Virus record (IMG/VR): IMGVR_UViG_3300020156_000448
Coordinates: 61,054 to 125,053 of that record
From: a virus
Direction: 5' to 3' (one strand)
Length of the DNA stretch: 64,000 nucleotides
The position numbers and the translations under genes are program-made. This document shows positions 31,496 through 57,880 of the stretch, piece by piece; position 1 is the stretch's first letter; each line of letters opens with the position of its first letter. The notes under the pieces were generated by a model that made no database searches, was not told the DNA's origin, and saw only the letters and a list, made by a program, of their open reading frames with translations.

Positions 31496-32311
31496 TTAAT
31501 TCGTCACTTTCAACAAAGAACTTAATCTTTGTCTTTGTCTTTCTTCGAAGCTGGTGCTTTTATCCTTTAAAATTTGATCAATTCTGTCTTTTATTGGTTG
31601 TGCGCCGTATTGCATTACAAATTGATGAGGATCGTATCCATCTGGTAATAAAACATAATCGGAGTCAAAAGTTATGTCATGTTTTGCCCTATTTAAAAAC
31701 TTCAGTCCGGCTGAATCATGATCAAAAAGAAAGATTGCCAGATCACAATATCTCAATAATTTATTAACGTGATGTTCAGTAAGTGCTGATCCCAGTACTC
31801 CCACGACATTTTTAATACCGTGCTGGTATAAAATAGCAACGTCAAATTGACCTTCCGCTATGATTACATAGTTTTCTTTGATGATGTGCTTTTTAGCCAC
31901 GTTAAGTCCGAATAAGAAGCTACTCTTAATAAATGAGCTATGAAGTTTGGATTTATGATAGTCTTTCTTTTCAGAACCGTCTGCCGACCTCCAAGAAACA
32001 ATTCTGTTTGTCTCTGTTTCTAGAACGTATTTATTACCTATTGCGTCTTGGTAATCATAAGTTATCATTCTTCCAGAAAGAGCCACAGGAACATTGTATT
32101 CATCTATGAGAGGAAATATAATCCTGCGCTCCCATCTCTTATCCTTATAACCGTCTTCTCCTGTAATAGGACCAAGACACCATCCCACTCTATAATCTGA
32201 GATGGTGTCTTGACTAATACCGCGAGAAGCTAGATAATCTCTTGCTACTAAGCCATCTTCCGACTGAAGTTGATATTGAAAAGATTCAACTAATTTAGCA
32301 AGATTTTCCAT
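31496..32311 (-). CDS. dnaG: DNA primase catalytic core (TOPRIM) lacking the zinc-binding and helicase-binding domains
   Basis: YLASRGIS, RIIFPL, SGR, LFGL, AEGQFDV, GSALT, FDHDSAG and PDGYDP; no N-terminal CHC2 finger. Confidence 0.9.
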   Translation of the reverse strand: MENLAKLVESFQYQLQSEDGLVARDYLASRGISQDTISDYRVGWCLGPITGEDGYKDKRWERRIIFPLIDEYNVPVALSGRMITYDYQDAIGNKYVLETETNRIVSWRSADGSEKKDYHKSKLHSSFIKSSFLFGLNVAKKHIIKENYVIIAEGQFDVAILYQHGIKNVVGVLGSALTEHHVNKLLRYCDLAIFLFDHDSAGLKFLNRAKHDITFDSDYVLLPDGYDPHQFVMQYGAQPIKDRIDQILKDKSTSFEERQRQRLSSLLKVTN

Positions 32312-32314
32312 TTA

Positions 32315-33520
32315 CTATTCTTCAATTCCTAGAAGTCTATTTCTTTCTTTTTCAATAATTACTTCCAGCTTATCCATAGAAAATGTCTCTGGAAGCAATT
32401 CTTCTTTAAGCTCTTGTGCAGCTTGCATCAGAAAGATACGACTTGCCATTTCGCCAACTAAGTCACCAAGGGTTGCTTGCTTAACAAAGTCTTCAAATGA
32501 TGGATAAGTCAGTTTATCATCATCTAATGTCTTGTAGATGATTTCACCCTTATATATTCTCCAAATACCAGCTTTTTTAGCTTTCCCTATTACTTCCATA
32601 ATCATATCAGGATCATCGAAGTACAACTCAAACACGCCTGCTCTCATTGGGGGTGCGAATTTATTTTTGATAAACTTTACAACTACATATTGACCAATAA
32701 CATTTTCTTGAGTATCGTATATATTGTAAGATTTTTCTTTTTCGTCGTAATGCTTACGAACGTCACAGCGAACCTGAGCAAAGAACTTAAGTGCACGTCC
32801 GCCTGGAGTATCGTCAGGGTTAGCAAACTTAGAAGCATTCATCTTGGTTCTTAACTGATTAATCAACACTACCGCTGTCTGGAATTGGCGGCAAAGTGGA
32901 GCCAATTTAGAAAGTGCACGTGTCAGAAGTTTAGCAATAGGAGCATAGTTCTGATCTTCTAAGCTGGATTCCATTTCAACCTTAGGCTGCAAGGCGGCTA
33001 CGGAGTCGATAACCACAATAGAGATTAAACCTTGCTTGATAAGCTCATATATCTTTTCAAATAGGTCTTCTCCCATACAAGGCTCAATCTTAATTAATTG
33101 TGCCGTATCGATACCAATTTTTTGCATGCGCTCATTGGTTGTTCCACCTTCCAAGTCGCAATACACTGCGTACTTATCAGGAAATACTCTTTGCGCCATT
33201 GCTACCAAGCGCTGAGCCATATAAGATTTACCAGAGCTTTCTGGACCATACAATTCGATGATAGCATTATTAGGATAACCTCCAATGCCTGCCGCTGTAT
33301 CCACCATTGGGAATCCACTTGGGATTGGAACAGTAGGATACCAACTTTCATCTGCAAAGCCAGCGCCTACACCAACCATTTCTTCATCTTTGTATGCTGT
33401 GTTTAATTTGGATAATACCTTCTTAATTTTTGCTTCTGTAGCTTTATCCTTAGAAGGTACAGGATCGCTAACTGAAAAAGAGGAGCCAGGAAGACCTGGC
33501 TCCTTATTAATATTTGTCAT
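32315..33520 (-). CDS. recA: Recombinase A
   Basis: GIGGYP, IELYGPESSGKS, VVIDSVAAL, INQLR, TPGGRALKF and KNKFAPP. Confidence 0.95.
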   Translation of the reverse strand: MTNINKEPGLPGSSFSVSDPVPSKDKATEAKIKKVLSKLNTAYKDEEMVGVGAGFADESWYPTVPIPSGFPMVDTAAGIGGYPNNAIIELYGPESSGKSYMAQRLVAMAQRVFPDKYAVYCDLEGGTTNERMQKIGIDTAQLIKIEPCMGEDLFEKIYELIKQGLISIVVIDSVAALQPKVEMESSLEDQNYAPIAKLLTRALSKLAPLCRQFQTAVVLINQLRTKMNASKFANPDDTPGGRALKFFAQVRCDVRKHYDEKEKSYNIYDTQENVIGQYVVVKFIKNKFAPPMRAGVFELYFDDPDMIMEVIGKAKKAGIWRIYKGEIIYKTLDDDKLTYPSFEDFVKQATLGDLVGEMASRIFLMQAAQELKEELLPETFSMDKLEVIIEKERNRLLGIEE

Positions 33521-33533
33521 TTTACTACCTCAA

Positions 33534-34640
33534 TTATTTAACTACTTGCTGCAAGCTTGCTAGCATGTCATCAACACTAGGAACGGCTGTATTTGCCATT
33601 GGAGCGGCTGCTTGTGGGGCGGCTGCTTGCTGAGGCTCATATACAGGTGTGATGGGAGCAGTCGGCTGAGATACATATGCGCCAGCGGCTGGCTCAGCTT
33701 GCATTGAAGCCTGAGGTGCCTGTTGTGGCTGATATATTGGCTGCTGTTGAACTACTTGAGCAGGTGCTTGCGGCTGAAAGGCTGGCTGTGCAGGAGCTAC
33801 AGGTGCCTGTGGTTGGTAAGCTGGCTGTTGCTGTGGAATAACCACATTCGGAGCAGGAGCAGCGCTACCAGTGCGGAAACCACCAGCATTGCCGCCAAAA
33901 CCACCAGCGGTATTGCCTCCGCTAGCAGCAGGAGCTTCAGGATTTAACACTGAGTTCTTGTTGATTAGCGGATTGTATTCATCAACTAGATTGTATACAA
34001 GGGGCTTATTTGTTCCACCACCGTTAAAGAGCATTTCATACTCTTGTTGAGAAATCGGCGCAGTGCCTGGATCACTCCAAGATGCTTCATAAATGATTTC
34101 TCTAGGCTCTGGCTTCTGACCAGCAGGCTTACGAGGATACTTAACTTCGATTGTGAAAACTGGACCATAAGTAGGGTCACTTGGATAATAGCCTGTCTGG
34201 TTATAGAAGTCTTCCAGCCATTTGTATACAGCGTAAGGAAATTCCATTACGCGAACATTTGGTGGGCTACCAGCGGCTTTAAGCTGATCGTTCTCATTCT
34301 GTTCGAGAACGTTAATCACAAATCGCTTACGGGATTCATCTGATTCGCACTTGTAGCAGTAAGTCTGCTCTGAAGTATAATCTACTAGATTTCCAGCGGC
34401 GTCGCGCTGCTTGTAGATATAGTCACCGCGCCTAATTGACCCATCTTCTGCGGTATAATCTGGATTGCGAATCTCTAGGGTCTTTGCGCAAATCTTACGC
34501 CCATCGGGATTCCAATGGAAGAGAAATGCGTGATATTCTCCAAGTAGTCTAACTCTATAGACTCCTGGTTCACTAATTTTAAGATACTTATCGTTCTTTC
34601 TTGCAGCACTAGCTGCTCTTACGCCTGTTCCAAACAACAT
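33534..34640 (-). CDS. gp32-like single-stranded DNA-binding protein with a Pro/Gln/Ala-rich tail (start re-assigned to 34640)
   Basis: YLKI...YRVRLL...HW...C...CYKC...RFVINV...VRVMEF...DPTYG pattern; low-complexity tail; GGAGGA Shine-Dalgarno before MLFGTG; directly upstream of recA. Confidence 0.65.
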   Translation of the reverse strand: MLFGTGVRAASAARKNDKYLKISEPGVYRVRLLGEYHAFLFHWNPDGRKICAKTLEIRNPDYTAEDGSIRRGDYIYKQRDAAGNLVDYTSEQTYCYKCESDESRKRFVINVLEQNENDQLKAAGSPPNVRVMEFPYAVYKWLEDFYNQTGYYPSDPTYGPVFTIEVKYPRKPAGQKPEPREIIYEASWSDPGTAPISQQEYEMLFNGGGTNKPLVYNLVDEYNPLINKNSVLNPEAPAASGGNTAGGFGGNAGGFRTGSAAPAPNVVIPQQQPAYQPQAPVAPAQPAFQPQAPAQVVQQQPIYQPQQAPQASMQAEPAAGAYVSQPTAPITPVYEPQQAAAPQAAAPMANTAVPSVDDMLASLQQVVK

Positions 34641-34761
34641 TTTGTTGTCCTCCGTATGTTTAACTATATGATTTACGTTATTTAACACTCTTTGAGTGAA
34701 ACGTTCGAAACATATATACAATTTGTATACAATTAACTAATGTATATATTTACTAACAATC

Positions 34762-35421
34762 CTATCTTTTTCTATCTACTTGAATAGAACGCCCAGGACT
34801 GAGATTCTCTCGATTTTGCCAGTAACCTAACACACGTGATAAGTCATCTCTAGCAGCTTCGACAGCCTCGCGTTTACCTTGCACATTAAAAAGCAAATCT
34901 TCATACACTTGCTTTTTAAAGTAAATGTCTTGAAGCTTAACTACGACTTCTGCTTTCTTAATATCACCTGTCTTCTTCTTGTCGTTGGGACTATTTAACA
35001 AGATGAATGCAGATAATAAATCGTAGCATTTATCAATCCACTTCAAGTATGCCAATACTAGCTTCTCTTGCCGAATCAAGTAACTTCTAGCAGAGGAGGT
35101 TTCCAAAAAAGACTGATCAAATGAATGGTAATCAACACCTCTCACATCGAGTTGATACTCTTCACAATACTGAATGAGTTGCTTTTCATCAAATCGACAA
35201 ACACTAGACAAAAGTTTGTCAACAATGATCTTTGCTTTCATAACTTGCTCTTCAGTTATTGGCTGACTATTCTCTAAAGCTTCGGCAATAATCTCTTTTT
35301 GCTTTTCAAAAGCTTCTAGAGGCGTTACATCTTTCTCTATAACTTCGTCTTCAACAAAAGGGGGTTCTTTTGAACCTTCTTCGATATCATCAGTTGATAA
35401 ATCTTCATTTTCTTCCGTCAT
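34762..35421 (-). CDS. Helical protein, possible UvsY-like recombination mediator
   Basis: Long amphipathic helices; lies upstream of the SSB and recA genes. Function is inferred from context only. Confidence 0.4.
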   Translation of the reverse strand: MTEENEDLSTDDIEEGSKEPPFVEDEVIEKDVTPLEAFEKQKEIIAEALENSQPITEEQVMKAKIIVDKLLSSVCRFDEKQLIQYCEEYQLDVRGVDYHSFDQSFLETSSARSYLIRQEKLVLAYLKWIDKCYDLLSAFILLNSPNDKKKTGDIKKAEVVVKLQDIYFKKQVYEDLLFNVQGKREAVEAARDDLSRVLGYWQNRENLSPGRSIQVDRKR

Positions 35422-35447
35422 GGAAACACCATATTCCTTGTTGAATT

Positions 35448-35897
35448 TTAACCAATGTCAGGTATTCTGTTCATGACGCCATGTACTGGCAAATTTGCTT
35501 CAATTTCTAAAGCTGGATCAGAAACTTCACCATACTTTATCATCTGAGACAGATCATTTGGTACACTATTATTATTCTGAATTGGAAGTGGGATTCCTTC
35601 TTCCTGAGAATAATTAGGTTGATTTAAATTATACTGCACATTATTGATATTATTAATGTTATCTGGTACATGACCCTGAATACTAGAAACAATATTGAAA
35701 TCAATTTCTGGTAAATTTAACGATCTTAAAACATCCTGAGCATCACTAATACACTCTTGTTTTACCTGCTGAAAAACATCCTGATGAGCAGCGTGATCTG
35801 GTTGGTTAACATCAACTTTTGCTTCTGTCCAAACCTCAAACCACTCATATCTTCTTGGAGCTACACGAAGTCTAACTCCCTTTGTAATCTGCGCCAT
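35448..35897 (-). CDS. Hypothetical protein
   Basis: 149-aa ORF; GAGG Shine-Dalgarno. Confidence 0.6.
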   Translation of the reverse strand: MAQITKGVRLRVAPRRYEWFEVWTEAKVDVNQPDHAAHQDVFQQVKQECISDAQDVLRSLNLPEIDFNIVSSIQGHVPDNINNINNVQYNLNQPNYSQEEGIPLPIQNNNSVPNDLSQMIKYGEVSDPALEIEANLPVHGVMNRIPDIG

Positions 35898-35899
35898 TT

Positions 35900-36181
35900 T
35901 TAATCCTCGTCTTTTGCTTCCATTGGGAATATTAAGATATTACCCTTGTGACCATCTCTAATTAAATGATCTATTAAATTTGCTTCACATTTCATCATAA
36001 CTGATGCATGATCTGTTGCTCTGATTGGATTAGAACTAGGGACAGCATCTAAGTAGATAAAAGCCCAGCCATTTTCATCTCTCTTTATATCTTCCTTATT
36101 TCCTCTGATCTTAAATCCAAATTTCTCTGAGTGTGAATTGGCGTATTTTAGCGTCAATTTCATCAATTCATCGTCTGTCAT
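35900..36181 (-). CDS. Hypothetical protein
   Basis: 93-aa ORF; start overlaps the dnaE-C stop. Confidence 0.6.
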   Translation of the reverse strand: MTDDELMKLTLKYANSHSEKFGFKIRGNKEDIKRDENGWAFIYLDAVPSSNPIRATDHASVMMKCEANLIDHLIRDGHKGNILIFPMEAKDED

Positions 36182-38082
36182 TAAAATACACCTTTTAATC
36201 TTGGAATGGTCTTATTTTTAGATGGACCTTTACCCATTCTATCCTTAATACCTTGGCATCTAATGAACTCTGATTTTAATTCTGGTTCGCTCCCAAAGCA
36301 ATTAAGTGCGCCTGCGTTAATAAGACATTCCACAACACTCTTAGAGACTTTATTACTAGTTGTTGCTCCAAGATAAAAATCTTGAAATGTATTATACGGC
36401 TGATTGGCACAAATTTCTCTCTGTGCTTCAGTGCCCACACCTTTAATACAACTTAAAGGCTTGCGAATTTTATCATCTTCGATAGTGTATACATTTTTGC
36501 TATGATTAATATCAACAGGAAGAAACTTGATGTTAAAATATCTTGTAGCTTCGCGCTCATAATACTCTAAGTTTTCATCACAGTCTGCACCACCGCTATT
36601 TAATTCCACAGTTAACAACGCGCTATAGAACTCTCTAGGAAACAAAGCTTTAAGAAATGCAGTTGCATAAGCCAAATAAGCATAAGCCGCTGAGTGAGCC
36701 TTATTAAAGCAATAATTACCAAACTTCTCAAACTGATCCCAAAGGTTCGACACTTCCGCATCTCCCATGAGACCTGTTTCTTTAGCTCTTGCCCTGAACT
36801 TAGCCGCCATTTCAGGAAGTTTTTTAACGTCCTTTTTACCAATAATTTTTCTGAATTCATCGGCTTCTGTCTTGGTAAATCCAGCCAGAATTTGACACGT
36901 CTTCATTAACTGTTCCTGATAAATAAACAATCCTAATGTGCTCTTTAGAATATCATATAGAGCAGGATGAGGATAATTAATAGCACTTGCATTACTCTTT
37001 CTTTCAATAAAGAAGTTATGATAGCCGTTTGCTAGCGGTCCTGGTCTATAAAGAGCCACACCAGCTACTAAATCATCAAAGCATGTGGGCTGTAATTCCA
37101 TAAGGAACTTTGTAAAACCATATTTTTCAAACTGAAAAATACCTTTTGTAATTCCCTTGGCAATTAGATTAATAACACTAGGCGCAGTCTGTGTATCAAA
37201 AGGATTGAGATTCCAAATATCTATATCCTTGCCGTGACGCGCCTTAATCATATTAAGAGCCATATGAACAACCCTAAGCGTCTTTACGCCAAGAGTATCC
37301 ATCTTCATACATCCAAGCTCTTCACAGTCATGCATATCGAATTGTGTGATATAAATAACTTTCTTGGTGTCTTCTTCTTTCGAAAAGTGAAGAGGAATTA
37401 ATTCGGCAATTGGCTCGTCGGTAATAATAATTCCGCCTGCGTGCTTGCCTGTACTGGCTTTAATGCCAAATATCTTCTTAGCATCTACAAGAATGTTATC
37501 TAATTCAGGATGGGCTTGGCGATATGCGGCAAAATTAGCCTCATTAATAGCAGCGTCAAAGTCTTCGTTTAATCTGGTATCTACCAGCTTGGATAAGAAT
37601 ATAGCTGTATCAGAAATACTCATCACTTCACCATTTTCTGAGGGAAGCTGAAGACCATGATACTTAGATGCGTTTTGAAGAGCACCTTTTACTTTCCAGT
37701 TGCCAAATGTACCAATTGGAGCAACGTGATCAGCCCCGTATTTTTGAGTAATATATGCCTGAACTGGAGTAATGTCTTCAAAGTCAGTATCAATATCAGG
37801 AGGACTATATCTTACAAGATAATAATCATCTCTTAAATTAAGAGGTTTATCAAAATCACAACATACATCTGTTACTCCTATTAAATAGGACAAATAACAA
37901 TTAGCTTTATTAACACTGCCTTTAAAGTTTTGATTTACTAGCTTTCCTAGCGTCCTATAAAGACTCGGATGCTGCTCAAAGAAGTCCATCTCCTCACGCA
38001 GTCTCATCATTTCGACTGAATTCGGGTCAGTGTTGGCTAATCTTGTTCTATCTATCAGACTAAATAATTTTTGTCTATCCAT
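36181..38082 (-). CDS. dnaE: DNA polymerase III alpha, C-terminal half (palm/thumb/fingers/HhH)
   Basis: PDIDTDF (catalytic Asps), GKHAGG, TQFD, KMDTLG, GIFQFE, ALYRPGP, IYQEQ, FNKAHSAAY and IKGVG. Confidence 0.93.
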   Translation of the reverse strand: MDRQKLFSLIDRTRLANTDPNSVEMMRLREEMDFFEQHPSLYRTLGKLVNQNFKGSVNKANCYLSYLIGVTDVCCDFDKPLNLRDDYYLVRYSPPDIDTDFEDITPVQAYITQKYGADHVAPIGTFGNWKVKGALQNASKYHGLQLPSENGEVMSISDTAIFLSKLVDTRLNEDFDAAINEANFAAYRQAHPELDNILVDAKKIFGIKASTGKHAGGIIITDEPIAELIPLHFSKEEDTKKVIYITQFDMHDCEELGCMKMDTLGVKTLRVVHMALNMIKARHGKDIDIWNLNPFDTQTAPSVINLIAKGITKGIFQFEKYGFTKFLMELQPTCFDDLVAGVALYRPGPLANGYHNFFIERKSNASAINYPHPALYDILKSTLGLFIYQEQLMKTCQILAGFTKTEADEFRKIIGKKDVKKLPEMAAKFRARAKETGLMGDAEVSNLWDQFEKFGNYCFNKAHSAAYAYLAYATAFLKALFPREFYSALLTVELNSGGADCDENLEYYEREATRYFNIKFLPVDINHSKNVYTIEDDKIRKPLSCIKGVGTEAQREICANQPYNTFQDFYLGATTSNKVSKSVVECLINAGALNCFGSEPELKSEFIRCQGIKDRMGKGPSKNKTIPRLKGVF

Positions 38083-38092
38083 TTATATGCAC

Positions 38093-38557
38093 CTAAAACT
38101 CCGTAGGCGGTAACGCCTTAACTTCTTCTTCTTTTTCTTCTAGTTTAACTAGGTTTAAGCCAATAGTTTTTGCTGCTTCTAACACTTTTTCGTCCACGCG
38201 ATAAGCATTTCTAAAAAACACTGTCTTAATTCCAGAGTTAGCTATTAATTTAAAACATCCGTAGCAAGGAAATGCTGTTACGTACATTTCGGCACCTTCT
38301 ATTTTGACGCCATTACGAGCGGCTTGAATTAAACTATTTGCTTCTGCATGGACAGTGCGGACGCAGTGCCCATCAACCATTTGGTGATCCGCATCATCGC
38401 AATGGGGCGTGCCTTTTATGCTACCATTATAGCCTGTAGATAAAATAGTTTTATCTCTTACAACCACAGCGCCAACATGAAGACGGTTACAGGTTGCTCT
38501 GGTGGAAACCTGTTCGGCAATCTGCATAAAATATTCATTCCAAGAAACTCTAGACAT
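38093..38557 (-). CDS. dCMP deaminase (ComEB-like)
   Basis: RATCNRLHVGA, GYNG, HAEANS and PCYGC. Confidence 0.93.
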   Translation of the reverse strand: MSRVSWNEYFMQIAEQVSTRATCNRLHVGAVVVRDKTILSTGYNGSIKGTPHCDDADHQMVDGHCVRTVHAEANSLIQAARNGVKIEGAEMYVTAFPCYGCFKLIANSGIKTVFFRNAYRVDEKVLEAAKTIGLNLVKLEEKEEEVKALPPTEF

Positions 38558-38723
38558 TCAAATTTACTCCAAAAAATTTCATAACTTTTCTTATCGAAAT
38601 TTGAATTCTATAAGAAAATGAACGTTTTCTTTCATCCTCTTCAATTTGATCCAGAATCCTCTGATAAGCAGTGGCGCGGCTTCCTGGAAGAGTGAATTCG
38701 GGAATAATAATTATTGGCTTCAT
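38550..38723 (-). CDS. 57-aa small ORF missed by the ORF track (MKPIIIIPEFTLPGSRATAYQRILDQIEED...)
   Basis: Its ATG overlaps the dnaE-N stop (ATGA) and its stop overlaps the start of the deaminase; it fills the gap exactly. Confidence 0.6.
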   Translation of the reverse strand: MKPIIIIPEFTLPGSRATAYQRILDQIEEDERKRSFSYRIQISIRKVMKFFGVNLNV

Positions 38724-40057
38724 TCTACAAAGTCTCTCTCTTCCAAAACAAAGCCTTTTTCAGCAGCTAAGAAGCGCTCAAAGTCCAAGTCATACAAAAT
38801 AGGATCGATATTAGTAATACCTAGGCAAAACAGCATTAAAGAGCCTGCACCAGAACCTCTTCCTGGTCCCACAAAGATGTTATTTTTCCAAGCCCACTGT
38901 ATATAATCTCTAACCACAATAAAGTATTTGGAAAACTCTGTCTTTGTTACAACAGATAGCTCGTAAGTTAATCTATCCTTATATCTTTGGTCATTGTGGT
39001 ATCCCTTTTGAATGAGACCTTTCCACGATAAGAATGTGAGATACTGACCGTTCTTGTCCAAATGTCCAATAGTAGCTTTCCACGCATCCCTAAATTTACA
39101 GAATGCTTCGTAATCATCTTGGGTCTCTAGGTCAAAGTTAGGCAAGCGAGCTTTTGCTCTTGCTCCCAAGGGAATATCTACATTACACTTTTCTGCAATC
39201 GCCATAGTTTCTTCAATTGCAAATTGCAAACCCCCGAAGGTGGAATAGATTTCATCTGGAGTCTTTAAATAAAACTCGTTAAAATCACCATCCCTGCCTT
39301 CATTATTGTTGGCTGTGGTTAGGTCTTTACCAAACTGGCGAGCCTTCTTAATCTGCTGAGCCTGAAAGTCATCCTTACAGATATAGTGAGTGTCGTTTGT
39401 TAGCACCGAGCGTATACCAAGCTCTTGAGAAAGTCTAATGGTATTTTCCAGCACCATGCGCTGCTTTACGGCAAAATCACCTTGACCGCCTTGCAGGACG
39501 CCTTGGTTGTCCATAGCATGAAACATTAACTCTAGGTAATAATCGTCCTTGAAACGTTCTTTATATTTAGAGGCAACCATTTTAGCCATATTATAGCCTT
39601 CGTTGCCCTGATGTTTCAAGAATGATTCCGCTATTTCTCCCTTAATGCAGGCAGAACTAACAATGAGACCATCGCCATATTTATCCAACAAATCAAAGTC
39701 TAGGCGTGGTCGCGCATAATAGCGCTCTTGCTCATAGGATACTGTGGCAAGTTTTTTAAGATTCTTCCAACCTTGATCATTTTTTGCTATTAATAGCAAA
39801 TGGTTATTCGATCTCGAAGATTTATCGAGAGAATTATTGCACACATAAGCTTCCATGCCCAAGATAGGTTTAATACCTTCTTCTTGGCAAGCTTTATAGA
39901 ATTTAATCGAACCAGATAGCGTTCCATGGTCTGTTAATGCCAAAGCTGGCATACCCATGTTTTTCGCTGTTTTTACAAAATCTTTAATTTTACACAATCC
40001 GTCAATCAATGAATATTCGGAATGATTGTGTAATGAAACGTACATCTTATCTGACAT
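38720..40057 (-). CDS. dnaE: DNA polymerase III alpha, N-terminal half (PHP domain plus the GRGS segment)
   Basis: LHNHSEYSLIDG, TDHG, GMEAY, HLLL, SACIKGE, TNDTHY, GPGRGSGAGS, LGITNIDP and FERFL, followed shortly by a stop. Confidence 0.93.
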   Translation of the reverse strand: MSDKMYVSLHNHSEYSLIDGLCKIKDFVKTAKNMGMPALALTDHGTLSGSIKFYKACQEEGIKPILGMEAYVCNNSLDKSSRSNNHLLLIAKNDQGWKNLKKLATVSYEQERYYARPRLDFDLLDKYGDGLIVSSACIKGEIAESFLKHQGNEGYNMAKMVASKYKERFKDDYYLELMFHAMDNQGVLQGGQGDFAVKQRMVLENTIRLSQELGIRSVLTNDTHYICKDDFQAQQIKKARQFGKDLTTANNNEGRDGDFNEFYLKTPDEIYSTFGGLQFAIEETMAIAEKCNVDIPLGARAKARLPNFDLETQDDYEAFCKFRDAWKATIGHLDKNGQYLTFLSWKGLIQKGYHNDQRYKDRLTYELSVVTKTEFSKYFIVVRDYIQWAWKNNIFVGPGRGSGAGSLMLFCLGITNIDPILYDLDFERFLAAEKGFVLEERDFVE

Positions 40058-40079
40058 TTGTCACCTTGCATTATATAAA

Positions 40080-40099
40080 GGTGGGGATTTCTCCCCACC
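40080..40099 (-). terminator. GC-rich hairpin after the def-like gene
   Basis: GGTGGGGA-TTTC-TCCCCACC, followed by TTTAT on the minus strand. Confidence 0.6.
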
Positions 40100-40111
40100 C
40101 ATCTTTATTTA

Positions 40112-40726
40112 TTAGATCACTAGATTGGGCTTGTCAGTAGGCTCTGGATTCTTACCAACCTCATGGAGAGTTTTGCCGTGGATATGATCGTATAGATGAT
40201 GGATTACAATTGCACCCAAATCTGTAAATCTCTTCTCTCTCGTCTTGCCTTCCATGTCCTTATATGTAACTTTAATAACCAAACAACGCTTAGTCTTAAA
40301 GCTCAAATTAGGAATTGAAGGACAAGATTCCACTACTTCTCTTGTATACTTTGATGGTTTAATTTCTTTAATAGAGGGATTAACCATTAAAGTGGATTTA
40401 GGCTTGGTAGCAAGTAGAAACATTTGTAAGTCATGACCTACCTGCTGGGCTGAAACTCCGTAAGATTCACGCATGGCTAAATACTGTTCCATTTTACGCA
40501 AACAAATATCTGCTTCAGCCATATTTCCAGATGTTACGCGACGACCTTTAGTGGTCATGATCGGATCATCGTATTCTACAATTAACTTGGTTTCAAATGT
40601 CATTGATTCTGTAAGATCAATTTCTGAATCAATAACACTGGACAAATTCGCTAATGAGGAACCACTTGGCAAAATTGCATGATGATGGTGATCACAACCC
40701 TCTGAACAAGAGTGCGTATCGCTCAT
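40112..40726 (-). CDS. def: Peptide deformylase-like protein with degenerate catalytic motifs
   Basis: YGVSAQQVG (motif 1 GxGxAAxQ), MVNP, ESCPSIP (motif 2 EGCLS) and IHHLYDHIHG (motif 3 QHExDH, with Glu replaced by Leu). Confidence 0.8.
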   Translation of the reverse strand: MSDTHSCSEGCDHHHHAILPSGSSLANLSSVIDSEIDLTESMTFETKLIVEYDDPIMTTKGRRVTSGNMAEADICLRKMEQYLAMRESYGVSAQQVGHDLQMFLLATKPKSTLMVNPSIKEIKPSKYTREVVESCPSIPNLSFKTKRCLVIKVTYKDMEGKTREKRFTDLGAIVIHHLYDHIHGKTLHEVGKNPEPTDKPNLVI

Positions 40727-40735
40727 AATATTTCC

Positions 40736-41536
40736 TTATTCTTTGTATTTCTCGTCATCATGGTTGGAAACACCTGCTATAAAACTAGAAGCTTTATAAC
40801 TGAACATTGTAAGATGAGGGGATGCTAAAAGGAATCCAAAAATTACTCTCTCGTCTTTAATCTCGTGTGTGGACGTGTATTTTTGTGAAAATCTACTGCT
40901 ATCGGGATCGATAGATAGTTGAAATTCAAGCATCTGAAGATTAAGTTCATCTTTTGTAGGAGCAAAGAAAGTCTTTATAATCATTGGACTCAAATCTCTG
41001 CCCTTATTTGGTTTTAGAATTACGGCTCCAATATGGGCGGGACCAGCAAAATTACGAAGTCCATAACCACTCACATTGTTTCCCTTTCGAAAATGATACT
41101 GTTTTACAAGTTCATTTCCAATATTGAAAGCCTCATCTAAAATTGCCGAACCGTCACTATTTCTATTTAATTCCATAGGTGGAATTGTTTTCAAGAATCC
41201 TGGAGTGGATATAAATCCATTCTCTGTTATATAAGTATAATCAAAATCTGAATAGGTGTCTGTTGAGATAAACAGATCGATTGGGTCTAAACCCACTATT
41301 TTATTATAACCTACTTCTTGAGAATAGAATGAAGACGGACCAACGTAAAGTGATTCGTTCGTTTTCCAACTTATATTGGTTTCATCAATGCCAGTTAATT
41401 GATCTAATTTATGAAGCGGAACACCATTATTCATCAATAACCCTGCGCTACCACCGTCAGCTACCCTATGAAATACAGGAATAACCATAAATGGGAACGT
41501 AGCCCTGTGTTCAACTAAATTAATTATCTCTGCCAT
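40736..41536 (-). CDS. Hypothetical protein
   Basis: 266-aa ORF; AGGT Shine-Dalgarno. Confidence 0.65.
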   Translation of the reverse strand: MAEIINLVEHRATFPFMVIPVFHRVADGGSAGLLMNNGVPLHKLDQLTGIDETNISWKTNESLYVGPSSFYSQEVGYNKIVGLDPIDLFISTDTYSDFDYTYITENGFISTPGFLKTIPPMELNRNSDGSAILDEAFNIGNELVKQYHFRKGNNVSGYGLRNFAGPAHIGAVILKPNKGRDLSPMIIKTFFAPTKDELNLQMLEFQLSIDPDSSRFSQKYTSTHEIKDERVIFGFLLASPHLTMFSYKASSFIAGVSNHDDEKYKE

Positions 41537-41595
41537 TAAATCTACCTACGAAAGTCTTTATTTGTTATATACATGAGAAGAGACTTTATTCTAAT

Positions 41596-42759
41596 TTATT
41601 GGTAGCATCGACAATGTTTGTAGATAAAATCACTTAGCATGCTATTAAATGAATCTTTATCTTCAGAAGGACTATGGCTAAAATAAACCAAAGCCTCGTG
41701 TTTCCCAATTTTGTGTGGTCTATTTCTCCCGACAAAGCTGGCACAATCTATGTTTTCATTTTCGATGAAGTATTTAATGGTCTGTGATCCAATTAGCATA
41801 ATTGCATCAGGTTTTAGAATTTCAATCCGCTTATTAAGCCATTTGTTTTTACAAAGAATAGCCTCTTTGAATGGATTATTTTGATTGGAATAACAATTAA
41901 ATATATAATCTATCCAAACATTTTCTTTTTCAATGCCTGACTTGGAAAGATAGTCAATTAACTCTTCCCTGCCTTTGCCTCCCATCCCCAAAGCATCTTC
42001 TTCTGAGAGCGGAGAATCAAGCACAAACATAACATTAGATACATGGCTACCAAAGCCCGTTACTACACTCTTGCATCCGTAACGAAGACTACAATCGGTA
42101 CATGTTTTATTATCTAATCGAAGCTCTTCTATAGTCTTTTTTTTCTCATCCAAAGCTGATTCCAGAGTCTTGATGCTGGGCAATATTTCATTTTTAATTC
42201 TAGAAAGTTGCCTTTGATCCTGATCTACAATCGCTTGATCTAATACTTGATATATACGCCCTATCATGGCATCGATCTTAGGGGAGTTAAATTTTCTAGA
42301 AATTCTTTTTCCCTCAACCGAAACTAGATAATTAATATTGTTAGCATCAGGTTCACTATAGTCGTTAAGACACAAGGTTCTCAAAAAATCTTCGTATGCC
42401 ATTTCTGACAAAGAGACATTTGAAATGTCGTTTTTTAATCCTAATTTTGCTGCAAAAAAACCTACAGCTTGACCCCACGTGCTAAAGCCTTTATACTCTT
42501 TGGCAAATGCAATTACATCCCCGCCTCTATGACACTGACCAAAACAATACCAAGATTGGTCATATGTATAAACACGAAAACTAGGAGTGTTTTCTTTATG
42601 AAGCGGACAGCAGCAAGAGAGCATTTCTGCTCCAGACTTATATCCCGCACTAGATAAATGAACACCTTCTTGTTGAAGAAAGTCTACAAGCGAAACGCGC
42701 TTGCGGATTTCGTCCGCAAGCCGTTTCGCCTCTATGTAGTGAAGTTTATTTTCCTGCAT
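41596..42759 (-). CDS. Primase CHC2 zinc-binding domain fused to a degenerate family-4 uracil-DNA glycosylase-like domain
   Basis: CPLHKENTPSF...WYCFGQCHRGGDVIAF; C-terminal CTDCSL...VVTGFGS...VMFVLDSP...FNC...C..WL...IEILKPDAIMLIG...HSPS. Confidence 0.85.
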   Translation of the reverse strand: MQENKLHYIEAKRLADEIRKRVSLVDFLQQEGVHLSSAGYKSGAEMLSCCCPLHKENTPSFRVYTYDQSWYCFGQCHRGGDVIAFAKEYKGFSTWGQAVGFFAAKLGLKNDISNVSLSEMAYEDFLRTLCLNDYSEPDANNINYLVSVEGKRISRKFNSPKIDAMIGRIYQVLDQAIVDQDQRQLSRIKNEILPSIKTLESALDEKKKTIEELRLDNKTCTDCSLRYGCKSVVTGFGSHVSNVMFVLDSPLSEEDALGMGGKGREELIDYLSKSGIEKENVWIDYIFNCYSNQNNPFKEAILCKNKWLNKRIEILKPDAIMLIGSQTIKYFIENENIDCASFVGRNRPHKIGKHEALVYFSHSPSEDKDSFNSMLSDFIYKHCRCYQ

Positions 42760-44395
42760 TTATTGAGCCATCTAAATTAATGAGAGCATCTAAGTTTAAA
42801 GAGTTTACGTTATTCTGAGCAATATCGGAATAAATTCCTTCTCTGTCAGCCGCCAAGACAGGAACTTCCGCCTCACCGCCTATACGGGCAGCGCCTCTTC
42901 CAGCGTTCCACGGAACCATAATTGTATCTCCATTGTTTTGCCGCACTGGAGAACCCTGCATATTTGCAGCTTCGTCAGCAATGCCGCCAATGGGAGCAAA
43001 TCCAACAGTATTTTGTGGGTCTTCAAACTTACACAAGTCTCCAAGGAATATTAAATCAACTCTCCAGTCCTTAGAACCGTTTCTCTGTTTTACCAATCCA
43101 ATAGTAACACTGTTTGAATCATCTGGGTTAATCTTAATCGTGATAACCGCATCAGCATCCTGACCTGGCTGGTTAGAGCCTTCGAGGTTTTCTAGTCCCA
43201 ATTCAGTTTCCTTTTTGTTTCTAACCCATCTTACAGAGTTTCTATTAGCCTGAGCCAATAGAATAGCAGCATGATCCCAGCGCTTTGCCAAATCACGGAT
43301 TTCCTTAGCAATATCTCCTAGGTCCGTGCTTCTATTATCTCTTCTAACGTTTGGGGGTTTAATAAGCCCAAGGTGATCCCAAATAATAATATCTGGTGGG
43401 TCATTCTTGTAGTGCTTCTCTAGCTTGGCTTCGATTTGAGATACTGTAAATTTACCTGCCTGAACTTCGATGACTCTAAAGTAAGAACCATCTCCACCAT
43501 CTTTTTTTCTAGACTTTAAGCGGTTTCTCCACTCATCGATCTTAGCAATATCTACATCTTTTAATTCGCCGTTAATCCATGCGTTATGCGAAATACCGCA
43601 TTCAGCAGAAGCGATCTTGCGCATAAAATCTTCACGGGATTCTTCGCATGAGATCACCAATATTTTGGCTTTATACTGAAGCTGAATTTTCCTAGCTACA
43701 CATCTAGCAAATGAGGTTTTACCAGAAGAAGACATACCCATAATGATGGACATTTTCTTCTTTTCAAAACCATTAAACTTCTTATCAATGATGCCATATC
43801 CAGTTTTGTATCCTGTATACATGTCTGGATTTTCTTTTCTGCGTACAGCATCATCAAATATTAAATCCACACCATCGTCTTCAAGATCAGACATCTTGTA
43901 AGACTCTTCTTCTGCGTATACTTCTTCAATTCTATGGAGCTTATGAAGAAGAGATGTGTAGGCATCCTTAATATCAGCGCCTTTAATATCTTCATTGTAT
44001 TTTCTATAAGCTTCAAGAATACTATACCCAGCCACAGTATGTTGCCACTGCTCGAACTTAACTGGAAAATCATCTTCTTGATATTCATAAGAAAGAAGAT
44101 TATCATAGAATTCTTCGTATGGAGCTATTAAGGGATTATTAATTCCTTGAAGTCTGAATGAAGTTATGATGCGCTCAATAAATTGAGCTTTTGTAATAAC
44201 AGCATCATGCTTCTCAAAGCACTCTACAACTCTTCTGAAAAAAAGTTGACAGTCTTCATTGAGAAACCAGTTTGGGTCTACTCCACGGTCTAGCGTGTAG
44301 CGAATATATTTTTTATCTTTAATCAAAAATGAGAGAATAACTAATTCTAACTCATTCTCAACTACTGATATTTGATCTAATTGTCCTATTGACAT
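42746..44395 (-). CDS. dnaB: Replicative DNA helicase
   Basis: GYKTGY, GMSSSGKT, ISCEE, IWDHLGLI, LAQANR, GQDAD and KQRNG. Confidence 0.9.
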   Translation of the reverse strand: MSIGQLDQISVVENELELVILSFLIKDKKYIRYTLDRGVDPNWFLNEDCQLFFRRVVECFEKHDAVITKAQFIERIITSFRLQGINNPLIAPYEEFYDNLLSYEYQEDDFPVKFEQWQHTVAGYSILEAYRKYNEDIKGADIKDAYTSLLHKLHRIEEVYAEEESYKMSDLEDDGVDLIFDDAVRRKENPDMYTGYKTGYGIIDKKFNGFEKKKMSIIMGMSSSGKTSFARCVARKIQLQYKAKILVISCEESREDFMRKIASAECGISHNAWINGELKDVDIAKIDEWRNRLKSRKKDGGDGSYFRVIEVQAGKFTVSQIEAKLEKHYKNDPPDIIIWDHLGLIKPPNVRRDNRSTDLGDIAKEIRDLAKRWDHAAILLAQANRNSVRWVRNKKETELGLENLEGSNQPGQDADAVITIKINPDDSNSVTIGLVKQRNGSKDWRVDLIFLGDLCKFEDPQNTVGFAPIGGIADEAANMQGSPVRQNNGDTIMVPWNAGRGAARIGGEAEVPVLAADREGIYSDIAQNNVNSLNLDALINLDGSINAGK

Positions 44396-44410: not shown

Positions 44411-45193
44411 TTATGAGAGATAACGGTATTCTTGCTGGAAGACTTGTAATAAAAAGTCTAATTCAGCCGCCGTGTAATTGGGCTTATCGTTTCTCTTCTG
44501 CTTTAGGAACGCGACGAGAGCATCGATATTATAAGTAATATCTGCTCTATTATCCTGCTCGTGAATAATCTCACAGGAAATTATAAACTCATCGAAATAA
44601 CTAATTAAAGATTCAGAATACTGGGTAGATAAAACCCTTGGGTCTACGTAGGCAGAAAATATCGTTGGCTTATTTTCTTTTCTTCTCTCTAAAACCACAT
44701 CCGCAAACCCATTGCAGACTTTGCTTGTTCTTAAGCATTTTGGAGAAACGCTATCAAGCATAAGAAAATCTACATTATGGTAGCGCTCTCTTACTTCAGC
44801 GTCACCATCCCAATCTAAATTCTCACAAAAAGTTGGAAAGCTTTCAAACATAGCTGTGTAACCGTATTCGATAGCTGCCCTCAGAATCAAAGTTCCAAGA
44901 AGACTCATTCCAAGCTTTTGGTTAGGCAGACCGTAAAGATATATGCCTTTGCCGCTCTCTCTATTTTTATGTATATTCAAAATATATTGGCGCGTCGTTT
45001 GAAGCGCGTTTTCTTTAGAAGGATTAACTTTGCCTCGAAGTGTGGCAACGTTATAGAATTTTGTTCCTTCTTTTCCCGTGAGGGAATAATCTAAAAATTC
45101 TGGCGGAATACCAGAACTTTTAATTTTGTTTTTGACATTTTCGTGATATACCTTTTGCAGATACTCTTTATAATTGTCGTCCAAGTTTTCCAT
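44411..45193 (-). CDS. DnaC/IstB-like helicase loader with degenerate Walker motifs
   Basis: SGIPPEF, GKGIYLYG-LPNQKLGMS (Walker A without the Lys), VDFLMLDSV and RRKENKPTIFS; directly upstream of dnaB. Confidence 0.7.
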   Translation of the reverse strand: MENLDDNYKEYLQKVYHENVKNKIKSSGIPPEFLDYSLTGKEGTKFYNVATLRGKVNPSKENALQTTRQYILNIHKNRESGKGIYLYGLPNQKLGMSLLGTLILRAAIEYGYTAMFESFPTFCENLDWDGDAEVRERYHNVDFLMLDSVSPKCLRTSKVCNGFADVVLERRKENKPTIFSAYVDPRVLSTQYSESLISYFDEFIISCEIIHEQDNRADITYNIDALVAFLKQKRNDKPNYTAAELDFLLQVFQQEYRYLS

Positions 45194-45205: not shown

Positions 45206-46162
45206 TTAAAATTCTTTCTTTTTGGACTTAAACACTTTTAAGCAATTGGCGTAATTTCTTTTAACTGTAGCCGTATCTCTCCACCATGGCTGTTCAGTAT
45301 ACTTAAAGAATTCAATCGCCTTTCTAAGGGCAGATTCACGCCAATTAATAGCCTTCCATGGGTATGGCTCCCACGCTATGGATGATTTAATGATTCTTTC
45401 AAATCTAGGTGCAGCAGAAACAGGGCTGCGTGAGGTATCTTCTCTGATAACTACGTCCACCTTGTTTAAAATAAGTCTAGAGATAGAATCAATCTCCATG
45501 CCTTCTTGAACTTCCAAGTAATATGCTACCATTGGAATTCCAAACTGCATGAGCAGTCTTACATTAAAATCAACAACTTGCTTATCATCATTTCTTTCCA
45601 TGTAATTACGGAAGGCAATGCGTAAGTCTTTTGGGTCAATGACCAGATCGCGGCTTGGAATTCTGCTTGTCGAATCAGCAATCTTCTTTACCGAGATCAC
45701 ATTCATATAATACTCTTTTAAATCTTCTTTTAGAGAAGAAGACAAATAAATCTGTCCTGTTGATTTAGCCCAAGGCATTCTTGTTTTTGCAGCCCAGTCA
45801 ATAAAATCAACAATTTCAGAATTAGACATTTCTAATTCTTGTCTGCCACAAGTTAAAATAGCTCCAAATGCTTGATTATCAAGTCTAATTTTACCTGGGT
45901 ACATATGCCCATATACTTTTCTAAACATGCGAGCAAAGTGACATCTGTAGTGAAGTGCATTCCAAGCATCTACAGGAAGACTCATATCAAGAGTAGCATC
46001 TCCACCACTTGCCCATACCTGCTGCTGCACTTCAGAAATCTTAGGAGGAGCTTCAGTATGCTTTTCATTACCATCGCTACTAGCAACAGGTTTAGGTGTT
46101 ATAGATATCTGCATTGCCACTTGAAAAGGATCAAAGGGTTTTTGATCAGTAGTTGCACTCAT
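45206..46162 (-). CDS. Hypothetical protein, candidate replication initiator
   Basis: 318 aa; first gene of the dnaC-dnaB operon and adjacent to the putative origin; no recognisable motif. Confidence 0.55.
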   Translation of the reverse strand: MSATTDQKPFDPFQVAMQISITPKPVASSDGNEKHTEAPPKISEVQQQVWASGGDATLDMSLPVDAWNALHYRCHFARMFRKVYGHMYPGKIRLDNQAFGAILTCGRQELEMSNSEIVDFIDWAAKTRMPWAKSTGQIYLSSSLKEDLKEYYMNVISVKKIADSTSRIPSRDLVIDPKDLRIAFRNYMERNDDKQVVDFNVRLLMQFGIPMVAYYLEVQEGMEIDSISRLILNKVDVVIREDTSRSPVSAAPRFERIIKSSIAWEPYPWKAINWRESALRKAIEFFKYTEQPWWRDTATVKRNYANCLKVFKSKKKEF

Positions 46163-50156: not shown

Positions 50157-51185
50157 ATGGACTTTTACGAAATACTTGGCGTGACTCCAGAATCTTCTGA
50201 AGAAGAAATTAAAAAAGCTTACAGAAGTCTGAGTAAAAAATATCATCCTGATTTAAATCCTAATAATCCAGAAGCTGAAGCTAAGATGAAAGAAATTTCT
50301 GAAGCATATACTGTGCTATCTAATCCTGATAAGCGCAGAGAATATGATATGCGCGGCAATGGTGGATTTGATTTTAGAGGAGGTAATCCATTTACTTCCG
50401 GCTTTGCAGACTTTTTTGATCTAAATGATATTATGAACCAAGCTTACAGTAATGTAAGGAGACAGCAAGCTGCCGTATTCCCAGTCACATTAACATTCAA
50501 TGAAACGTTCTTTGGTACAACGAAAAAAATTGCTTTAAAAAATATCAAAGCAAAATGTCATGCTTGCAATGGTCTTGGAACTGCTGATGGCAGTAATCCT
50601 AAATGCGTAAAGTGTAGCGGCACAGGACAGGTTAGGAAGCTTCAGCGAAATGCTATGATGCAAGTGGTTACATCTGTTGCGTGTGACGATTGCCAAGGGA
50701 AAGGCGTTGGGAAAATCGATCACCCGTGCTCTGATTGTACTGGCAATGGGTATCTTCTAACAAATCACGAAATTCATGTGGAATTCCCTTCAGGGACAAA
50801 GGTTGGTGATAAGTTAGTCCTGAATGGAAGAGGTCATTATGACAGATCGGGATTTACTAATGATTTAGTAATAGCTGTTACAGAGGTTATTAACGATACT
50901 CCGTATTCAAGATATAGAGAAGATTTGTTTTTAGAGGTTTCTTTGCCACTTCATGAGGTAATTGGTAAAGAATTTATTGAAGTGTCTCACTTAGATGGAA
51001 AGAAATACCAAATATCTCCAAATAGCGGAAATGATGTATCGCAGTTTTCAGGACAGGGATTTGGTGGCAGACATCCTGGAATTAAGGGTAATTTCGTAGT
51101 AAAATTAAATATTAAAATGCCTAAGAATATCGAAGCTGAAAAGCTTAATAAGCTTAAGCAATTACTGAATGATGCTGAGTATTAA
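50157..51185 (+). CDS. dnaJ: DnaJ chaperone (type I)
   Basis: J-domain with HPD, a G/F region and four CxxCxGxG repeats. Confidence 0.95.
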
Positions 51186-53893: not shown

Positions 53894-54863
53894 CTATTGC
53901 TTCTGTTGTAATATCTGAATTCACCATTTGCTCTACAAGTTGTTTAAAGGTGAATTCGGGTTGCCATCCAAGCTTTTGTCTAATTTTGGTACTATCCCCA
54001 ACAAGTAAATCTACTTCTGCGGGACGCATAAACTTTGCATCTTGTTTTACAAATCTTTCCCAGTTAGGCTCATCAATACACTCAAAAGCCACTTGTAGAA
54101 AATCGCGCACAGAATGAGTTTCACCTGTGGCTACTACGTAATCATCTGGCTCATCGCATTCAAGCATCATTATCATTGCGCGGCAATAATCTTGAGCATG
54201 ACCCCAATCCCGTTTAGCATCTAAATTACCCAGAGTAATTGTTTGCTTTCGATCATAATAAATCTTTGCAATAGCTTTCGTGATTTTTCGGGTTACGAAT
54301 TCTTCACCTCTTGTTGGTGATTCATGATTAAATAGAATCCCGTTACTAGCGAACATACCATAGCTTTCACGATAGTTAACAGTCATGTTGTAACCAAAGC
54401 ATTTTGCCACTCCGTAAGGGCTTCTTGGATAAAATGGAGTTTGTTCTGTTTGTGGAACTTCTCTAACTTTTCCAAACATCTCTGAAGAGCTAGCCTGATA
54501 GAATTTAATCTTCTTGTTGAGAATTCGAATAGCTTCTAAGCAATTAAGTGTTCCCATGCTAACCACATTTGATGTTAGGATAGGTTGATTCCATGATTCT
54601 CCAACAAAAGATTGTGCCGCCAAATTATAAAAATGATCAGGATTCGCTGTTTCAATAGCATTGATGATTGAACTCTGATCGGTAACATCTCCGTAAAGAA
54701 GATGGAAATTTTCATTTGTCATCAAGTCTTGAATCCTTTGAAGATTATGGTTCGCTGTTCTTCTGGAGATTCCATATACTGTATAGCCCTTAGCTAAGAG
54801 TAGTCTTGACAAAATGCTTCCATCCATGCCAGTAACGCCAGTAATTAAGGCTGTCTTATTCAT
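53877..54863 (-). CDS. gmd: GDP-mannose 4,6-dehydratase
   Basis: ALITGVTGMDGS, NLAAQSFV, YQASSSEMFG, PRSPYGVAK, LFNHESP, FVTRKIT and RDWGHA. Confidence 0.96.
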   Translation of the reverse strand: MNKTALITGVTGMDGSILSRLLLAKGYTVYGISRRTANHNLQRIQDLMTNENFHLLYGDVTDQSSIINAIETANPDHFYNLAAQSFVGESWNQPILTSNVVSMGTLNCLEAIRILNKKIKFYQASSSEMFGKVREVPQTEQTPFYPRSPYGVAKCFGYNMTVNYRESYGMFASNGILFNHESPTRGEEFVTRKITKAIAKIYYDRKQTITLGNLDAKRDWGHAQDYCRAMIMMLECDEPDDYVVATGETHSVRDFLQVAFECIDEPNWERFVKQDAKFMRPAEVDLLVGDSTKIRQKLGWQPEFTFKQLVEQMVNSDITTEAIARFSS

Positions 54864-56132: not shown

Positions 56133-56133
56133 A

Positions 56134-56829: not shown

Positions 56830-56831
56830 AA

Positions 56832-57809: not shown

Positions 57810-57880
57810 TAAATAGCTCCAGTTAATATTATAGTTTATATACGCTGTGGACGTATAATAATACCAGTGAGGTCAATCAA

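Follow-up and report, generated by a model that had tools for sequence, protein, structure and literature searches.

We examined a 64,000-nt stretch of viral DNA (the window; bases 61054-125053 of the 125,053-bp IMG/VR record IMGVR_UViG_3300020156_000448, classed as a provirus and estimated to be 76% complete) that appears to encode a DnaG-type primase in two pieces. One, P0001, is a catalytic core without a zinc-binding domain (ZBD); the other, P0002, carries a CHC2 ZBD, a helical module and a degenerate domain that folds like the uracil-DNA glycosylases of family 4 (UDG; family 4, UDG4). The two genes lie 9 kb apart, with 12 open reading frames (ORFs) of at least 57 amino acids (aa) between them, and the P0002 start codon (at 42759) is 14 nt inside the end of dnaB; both the distance and the overlap are as given in a preliminary description of this DNA. 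The closest relative of P0002 has nearly the same N-terminus, with 7 of the first 8 residues identical. The features concerned are the following.

31496-32311, minus strand: P0001, 271 aa, ZBD-less DnaG core
41596-42759, minus strand: P0002, 387 aa, CHC2 ZBD, helical module and UDG4 fold
42427-42759, minus strand: CHC2 ZBD of the DnaG type (C51, H54, C72, C76), P0002 residues 1-111
42106-42426, minus strand: helical module, P0002 residues 112-218 (helices 114-130, 139-157, 160-178, 182-218)
41599-42105, minus strand: family-4 UDG fold, putative pseudo-glycosylase, P0002 residues 219-387 (C220, C223, C289, C303)
42746-44395, minus strand: DnaB-type replicative helicase, 549 aa, its stop codon inside the start of the P0002 gene

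P0001 matches DNAG_N (2e-12) and three Toprim models in all, among them Toprim_4 (1.2e-12), and has no match to Zn_ribbon_DnaG in Pfam. It had been described as a TOPRIM domain only; the lack of a ZBD stands, whereas the DNAG_N segment is present too and the protein reaches position 361 of 414 of TIGR01391, i.e. it spans the RNA-polymerase core. Alignment to Aquifex DnaG (2au3, E 5.3e-36) covers residues 125-361 of a chain of 407. P0001 itself stops some 25 residues past the TOPRIM domain, and approximately the last 40 to 50 residues of the canonical core are missing. All 6 of the ZBD-less cores compared keep the TOPRIM acidic residues E153, D197 and D199 unchanged; besides P0001, the family comprises five proteins of 253-270 aa with the same ZBD-less architecture (87, 59, 58, 44 and 32% identity). 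Judged as a one-chain DnaG primase, P0001 has neither a ZBD on the same polypeptide as the core nor a C-terminal DnaB-binding domain; PF10410, which models the latter, gave no match in P0001 or P0002 at E values up to 1. A phage DnaG that lacks the helicase-association domain, and for which an adaptor was suggested, is described in the available portion of PMC2147016.

P0002 supplies the part that P0001 lacks. Zn_ribbon_DnaG (PF01807) matches residues 13-111 with an E value of 7.2e-17, and in an AlphaFold2 (AF2) model of P0002, built from a 17-row family alignment (mean predicted local distance difference test score, pLDDT, 85.7), the ZBD superposes on 1d0q_B (Z 12.8, root mean square deviation (rmsd) 2.4 over 98 residues). 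The CHC2 zinc ligands are invariant in 17 of 17 rows. The best-conserved positions of the helical module are S147 (15/17), K/R151 (17/17) and D/E174 (17/17). On the primase profile phrog_6444 (577 positions) the two proteins are complementary, P0001 covering positions 119-379 and P0002 positions 9-97, and over the 125,053-bp record there is one ZBD, one TOPRIM domain and one UDG-superfamily domain.

The C-terminal part of P0002 matches Thermotoga maritima UDG (1l9g_A) with a Z score of 23.7 and 2.1 rmsd over 178 residues, which, with the ZBD match, bears out the three-part architecture proposed earlier. Foldseek on the P0002 model returned 4zby (E 4.7e-12), TM by target in the Foldseek matches was 0.72-0.79, and AF2 pLDDT block means are 79-95 over residues 211-380. 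Pfam UDG (PF03167) matches residues 240-365 (E 9.5e-6; score 26.2 bits, cut-off 24.3), and the NCBIfam type-4 UDG models leave P0002 far below their cut-offs (UDG_fam4, 49.4 bits vs 125.3); by family score alone it also falls outside UdgX (TIGR03914, 37.3 bits vs a cut-off of 189.95). As had been noted, four cysteines occupy positions like those of iron-sulfur ligands: C220, C223, C289 and C303 align with the cysteines of Thermus thermophilus UDG (1ui0; phmmer, 1.2e-14). In family-4 UDGs the aligned cysteines are the ligands of a [4Fe-4S] cluster, and the Phe of the PF.G motif and the Asn before the third Cys form the uracil pocket and contact. From the cysteines, the P0002 domain most likely still holds a [4Fe-4S] cluster.

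P0002 thus shares with the family-4 UDGs (TM0511, 1l9g; 1ui0) the fold and all four cluster cysteines; what it has lost relative to them is GE(A/G)PG, the Phe of PF.G, the Asn that precedes the third Cys, and the loop at HPS. Motif A reads LDSPL in place of GEAPG; the P-F of PF.G is absent (GMGGKG there); DY replaces [DS]N; and motif B reads SHSPS in place of YHPS and is followed by a deletion of about 10 residues, where intact relatives have YHPSFILRVGG. Set against T. thermophilus UDG the corresponding segments are GEGPG and LDSPL, RPFVGKAG and GMGGKGRE, and ITNIVKCRPP and IDYIFNCYSN. The losses at motif A, the Asn and motif B had been reported in the preliminary description; those of the P-F of PF.G and of the loop after motif B are additional. 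Because four substrate-binding or catalytic features and a loop are lost, we read the domain as non-catalytic, and its assignment as a pseudo-enzyme, also made in the earlier description, is strongly supported.

Structure prediction of P0001 together with P0002 gave a score of 0.63 and the verdict 'supports binding', against 0.00 for the best of three controls. Of 80 solved complexes, 58 reach the mark for this verdict, and so do 2 of 110 mismatched pairs; this calibration is rough here as custom alignments were used. Three runs scored 0.63, 0.64 and 0.40, with a contact agreement of at least 52% and a partner pLDDT of at least 79. On the P0001 side the predicted interface comprises residues 179-188 (a TOPRIM helix), 71-72, 128, 131 and 214, and on the P0002 side residues 140-151 and 167-178, which belong to helices two and three of the module. 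The confident predicted contacts exclude the ZBD, and the interface is therefore unlikely to have been copied from the solved Aquifex ZBD-core structure. The predicted contact positions are the best-conserved ones of both families: L185, R187 and Y188 of P0001 are invariant across the ZBD-less cores, including gp419 of Bacillus phage G, and the same place in Aquifex and Bacillus DnaG reads LLSKFTKK and ILRRNVEE, respectively.

In T7 gp4 and bacterial DnaG, the ZBD of a given subunit works on a different subunit's core. The present pair is similar in that a template-reading ZBD would work with a TOPRIM core, and differs in that the ZBD of those proteins is covalently linked, whereas here a protein apart from the core, P0002, bears the ZBD and, by prediction, a docking bundle. 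Archaeo-eukaryotic primases also possess a non-catalytic subunit with a [4Fe-4S] domain, PriL/p58C; the likeness to P0002 is one of analogy only, as fold and primase superfamily are unrelated. The closest precedent comes from Bacillus phage G (NC_023719.1), whose gp419 is a 235-aa ZBD-less DnaG (L047 2938-3645) and whose only DnaG zinc ribbon lies in a 210-aa ORF (L048 1483-2115) 154 kb from gp419. Against the family profile, hhalign places this ORF over P0002 residues 18-186, a span that takes in the helical module (99.1% probability); phage G thus shares with our system the L..RY interface motif in gp419 and the ZBD with its helical module in the small protein. Unlike P0002, the phage G small subunit has no UDG part, and the UDG-superfamily match of that phage is a separate 331-aa ORF. 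Other proteins with a ZBD and helical module and no UDG are P0016, P0022, P0025, P0035 and P0067 (190-232 aa). We know of no biochemistry for the phage G system or for this one. A standalone primase-type Zn-ribbon beside DnaG in jumbo phages is reported in the available portion of PMC7824862, and in these phages and phage G, as here, ZBD and core reside on separate polypeptides with genes far apart. A Helicobacter prophage (BK070049) was considered as a further split example and rejected: its 'similar to DnaG' feature lies 3.5 kb from a full DnaG coding sequence and is probably a fragment.

Since the halves are complementary and single-copy, the complex model passes and phage G offers a precedent, the two-subunit primase put forward in the preliminary description is, for a computational study, well supported.

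The fusion of a DnaG-type ZBD to a UDG is not peculiar to P0002. In an exhaustive HMMER search of 1.84 billion cluster representatives, from which the 150 best matches were listed and on which all family counts rest, we found 16 full-length proteins with ZBD, helical module and UDG (363-406 aa) and two further ones interrupted by inteins, P0010 (763 aa) and P0013 (738 aa), so that the ZBD-UDG family comprises 19 cluster representatives including P0002. The fusion is rare, and none of the 19 comes from a cultured source. Conservation was counted over the 17 uninterrupted rows, or over 19 with P0010 and P0013. Each of ten relatives that were looked up is the sole member of its cluster and comes from a metagenome assembly, and two of them carry only the Joint Genome Institute (JGI) name 'uracil-DNA glycosylase family 4'. 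A word-index protein search returned a single full-length relative of P0002. INPHARED yielded no full-length P0002 match (28 partial records) and no DNA match. No ZBD-UDG copy was found in IMG/VR viral contigs (scanned with P0002, P0001, the family alignment, P0015 and P0017), in metagenome contigs or in the GTDB genome set; these contig scans gave only generic ZBD or canonical primase matches, and tblastn of the matched loci detected no UDG part. The large clusters of the ESM Atlas likewise contained no ZBD-UDG copy, the feature search giving nothing usable and the structure search a plain UDG cluster only. A match in Moorella phage MTATph1 was set aside as a standalone UDG-like ORF.

The Fe-S cysteines C220, C223, C289 and C303 are kept in 17, 17, 16 and 17 of 17 rows. 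The GEAP of motif A is kept in five (P0008, P0009, P0014, P0017 and P0019), or in 6 of 19 with the intein rows, as P0010 has the motif and P0013 does not; P-F of PF.G and the Asn before the third Cys are each kept in 7 of 17, and the HP(S/A) of motif B in 5 of 17. P0002, P0004, P0011 and P0012 lack about 8-10 residues directly after motif B. On Pfam UDG, the score is 74-86 bits for the motif-intact members and 26 for P0002. By these motifs, the family holds members that resemble working glycosylases as well as degenerate ones, P0002 among them. A quickly built tree of UDG parts (19 fused rows, 17 hand-picked free UDGs and three polymerase-fused UDGs) places 17 of the 19 fused rows in one group (SH-aLRT 93), with motif-intact rows basal and the degenerate rows in two nested groups, while P0017 and P0019 cluster with a free UDG (97). 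The topology as a whole suggests two or more motif losses, and possibly two fusions. The relatives of P0002 form an identity series (72, 41, 37 and 35%) that runs parallel to that of P0001, a pattern that fits co-inheritance of the two proteins.

Some relatives depart from the common architecture in other ways. The inteins of P0010, P0013 and P0091 interrupt the zinc ribbon directly before the last zinc-ligand Cys, which acts as the +1 residue; Intein_splicing scores 37.2 bits in P0010 and lies below cut-off in P0013 and P0091, the last of which also has a LAGLIDADG match. P0078 (359 aa) has an apparently reversed order, with an N-terminal DNAG_N segment and a C-terminal CHC2 ribbon at residues 275-356.

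UDG folds occur in other replisomes. Vaccinia D4 is a fold match of the P0002 UDG domain (8q3r_D, Z 8.2, rmsd 4.2 over 154 residues), and as part of the E9-A20-D4 holoenzyme is a UDG fold serving as an architectural replisome component, much as we propose for P0002. The UDG family of D4 is another one, however, and D4 is catalytically active and devoid of an Fe-S cluster; its partner is a polymerase cofactor and not, as predicted for P0002, a primase. A closer match is the polymerase of phage phiLo (9qhs_A, Z 13.9, rmsd 2.5 over 145 residues). According to the available portion of PMC10201439, family-4 UDG domains are fused to phage PolA, with catalytic residues kept in some and unconserved in the N4-like UDG-PolA proteins, for which a processivity role was suggested. 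The accessible part of PMC13697223 reports that the UDG-PolA proteins of SP15-like phages, YerA41 and phiLo are active and, from cryogenic electron microscopy and assays, that in SP15-like polymerases deoxyuridine (dU) ahead of the fork is recognised by the active UDG domain. The ZBD-UDG family resembles UDG4-PolA, as far as these sources describe it, in having a UDG4 fold on a replisome protein, with active and dead versions within one family; it differs in that the partner is the primase ZBD subunit of a DnaE-type replisome and the UDG is C-terminal. Two matches of the P0002 search, P0052 and P0083, are UDG-exo-PolA proteins.

P0140 consists of a DnaE C-half (fingers and intein) with an intact C-terminal family-4 UDG, and phrog_4335 joins a DnaE-like to a UDG-like segment; on this basis UDG4 folds are also fused to DnaE pieces in other phages. 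phrog_4335 matches both the DnaE C part of this phage and the UDG part of P0002. The primase small subunit is thus the third replisome partner of the UDG4 fold, after PolA and the DnaE C-half, and the motif-intact ZBD-UDG relatives may scan the template of the lagging strand for uracil in a manner coupled to replication.

P0001 and P0002 belong to a minus-strand replication module that spans approximately 26-46 kb of the window. The region is present in one sequencing run, a soil metagenome that may be its source; no RNA run is listed. Further features of the module are given below.

44411-45193, minus strand: weak candidate for a DnaC/DnaI-like loader, upstream of dnaB
40736-41536, minus strand: 266-aa ORF with no Pfam, PHROG or NCBIfam match, transcribed next after P0002
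38720-40057, minus strand: DnaE N part (PHP and N part), 445 aa
38093-38557, minus strand: dCMP deaminase, between the two DnaE pieces together with a 57-aa ORF
36181-38082, minus strand: DnaE C part (palm, fingers and helix-hairpin-helix), 633 aa
32315-33520, minus strand: RecA

In transcription order, a peptide-deformylase homologue lies between the 266-aa ORF and the DnaE N part, and the DnaE C part is followed by four unknown ORFs, RecA, P0001, a Cas4-like nuclease and a sigma-like protein. The DnaE-type polymerase is likewise encoded in two genes; the matches of the two pieces to the DNA_pol3_alpha model overlap (2-98 and 68-260), and no intein domain was detected in either piece. DnaB extends about 90 residues past DnaB_C (residues ~460-549; window 42746-43020) in a Gly/Ala/Asn-rich tail, which is a possible docking site for replisome partners. 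Two ORFs of the module, at 33534-34721 (minus strand, 395 aa) and 45206-46162 (minus strand, 318 aa), have no Pfam, PHROG or NCBIfam match. A beta clamp is encoded at 6609-7763 and a ThyX-like protein (41.6 bits) at 3624-4460. No dUTPase was found in the 76%-complete record, nor a homologue of the TS type (classic thymidylate synthase or hydroxymethylase). With the ThyX-like protein and dCMP deaminase present and no TS homologue found, the genes fit ordinary thymine DNA, and nothing was seen that would indicate non-canonical bases.

Outside the module, glycan genes occupy 4497-6605 and 51185-61973 and include several glycosyltransferases, a GDP-mannose 4,6-dehydratase, a pyruvyl transferase and a methyltransferase. 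One of them, at 51185-53893 (plus strand), encodes a 902-aa group-1/GT4 glycosyltransferase with a weak Intein_splicing match over residues 246-607 (23.1 bits, cut-off 35.8) and a match to the 'GT4 in conflict systems' model. A homologue of DnaJ is encoded at 50157-51185.

We favour, at a probability of roughly 0.62, a two-subunit DnaG-type primase with a docking bundle and a UDG fold that serves as a structural or protein-contact module. P0001 would be the large subunit, the catalytic RNA-polymerase core, and P0002 the small subunit, giving the template-reading ZBD in trans. From the complex model and the conservation of the contact positions, the helical bundle after the ZBD would dock on the TOPRIM domain and so stand in for the missing covalent link. 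As their genes overlap, P0002 and DnaB are probably made together, and we would guess that P0002 also brings the core to the helicase. The UDG4 fold would descend from an active, replisome-tethered UDG of the kind still carried by the motif-intact relatives and have been kept in this lineage, probably as a structural or protein-contact module.

Several observations weigh against this account. The helical module has no specific structural relative, matching only generic helix bundles with Z scores of at most 9.3 (VIA-align), which is under the tool's stated noise level for helical models. The idea that this module takes the place of the C-terminal helices of the canonical core that P0001 lacks was considered but not adopted. 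The score of the complex is a model confidence; the alignments behind it were unpaired and had few rows (6 and 17), and one of the three runs reached 0.40. The co-occurrence of a ZBD-UDG protein with a ZBD-less core is seen in this record alone and is elsewhere suggested by the parallel identities; the part missing from the 76%-complete record could hold a second primase or UDG. The case for Fe-S binding by P0002 consists of the aligned cysteines, and the quick UDG tree leaves 13 of 36 inner branches unresolved.

The alternatives differ mainly in what they make of the UDG domain. The domain might be a decaying relic, tolerated only because the ZBD subunit that carries it is essential. Between P0002 and P0004 it has diverged most of the three parts (62% identity, compared with 85% in the ZBD and 74% in the helical module), it has suffered the catalytic losses and the loop deletion, and versions of the subunit without it exist; in the motif-intact pair P0008 and P0009 the UDG part is the best conserved, at 53% vs 41% and 23% for the other parts. 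We nonetheless consider decay doubtful: 13 degenerate rows, with only 22-35% identity mutually or to P0002, have retained the complete fold and the four cysteines, no truncated or frameshifted form occurs among the 19 representatives, and the AF2 model of the domain is confident. Nor is P0002 at all likely to be an active repair glycosylase fused to a zinc finger. Pfam UDG is just over its cut-off and two relatives bear the JGI name cited above, but P0002 lacks motif A and the loop of motif B as well as the Phe and the Asn, the UDG_fam4 score is less than half the cut-off, and the intact relatives score far higher on Pfam UDG; we give this reading almost no credence.

The preliminary description had gone further and proposed that the domain is a non-catalytic sensor of a base, a modification or single-stranded DNA that licenses priming. 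Retention of the fold and Fe-S cysteines across deep divergence would suit such a role, as would the absence of a dUTPase from the record and the reading of template dU before synthesis by active UDG domains on phage PolA (available portion of PMC13697223). Against it, the pocket Phe and Asn, the His context and the following loop are all lost; the domain has a net charge of -2 (-2 to -3 in P0002-type domains) against +3 to +9 in motif-intact fused domains, weak evidence given that some free UDGs are acidic too; the thymidylate genes fit ordinary thymine; and other phages, phage G included, have ZBD and helical proteins without any UDG. The proposed licensing by base or modification is not borne out, and we now regard a sensor as improbable. 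Slightly less so, and still speculative, is the idea that P0002-type proteins are the lagging-strand counterpart of UDG-PolA: intact members would ride the primase behind DnaB and scan for uracil before priming, and degenerate members would form a redox- or DNA-sensing gate on primer initiation or hand-off, analogous to the Fe-S domain of PriL.

A different kind of explanation concerns the pairing itself. P0002 could be a ZBD adaptor for origin or helicase loading, or for repair recruitment, with P0001 acting alone or with a host factor. The P0002 gene does keep company with dnaB and a DnaC-like gene and is 9 kb away from P0001, and the contacts in the scored model are not between ZBD and core. 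Yet the only ZBD of the record is of the DnaG type, the coverage of phrog_6444 by P0002 and P0001 is exactly complementary, the complex model passes where the controls score 0.00, and interface residues are conserved in both families. An adaptor of this sort therefore seems to us a long shot, and the two-subunit primase remains our preferred reading.

Whether the system is undescribed, as had been claimed, has a divided answer. The split primase is already known as a genomic pattern (PMC7824862) and replicases carrying UDG4 have been published (PMC10201439, PMC13697223), as the available portions of these papers describe, whereas, as far as our searches go, the fusion of ZBD and UDG seems to be new, as does the predicted docking module. 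Our literature searches, made on texts other than the supplementary architecture tables of PMC7824862, turned up no published description of a CHC2-UDG fusion.

DnaG primases have been studied almost wholly as single chains. A natural two-piece form with a docking bundle of its own would offer a clean way to ask what the ZBD contributes in trans, and could help to explain how the fork is reached by a core that has no helicase-binding domain. The predicted interface residues are directly testable as mutants. The family extends the theme of phages tethering UDG4 folds to replisome parts, and the presence of intact and degenerate versions within it permits a comparison of catalytic and non-catalytic forms of an Fe-S glycosylase fold.

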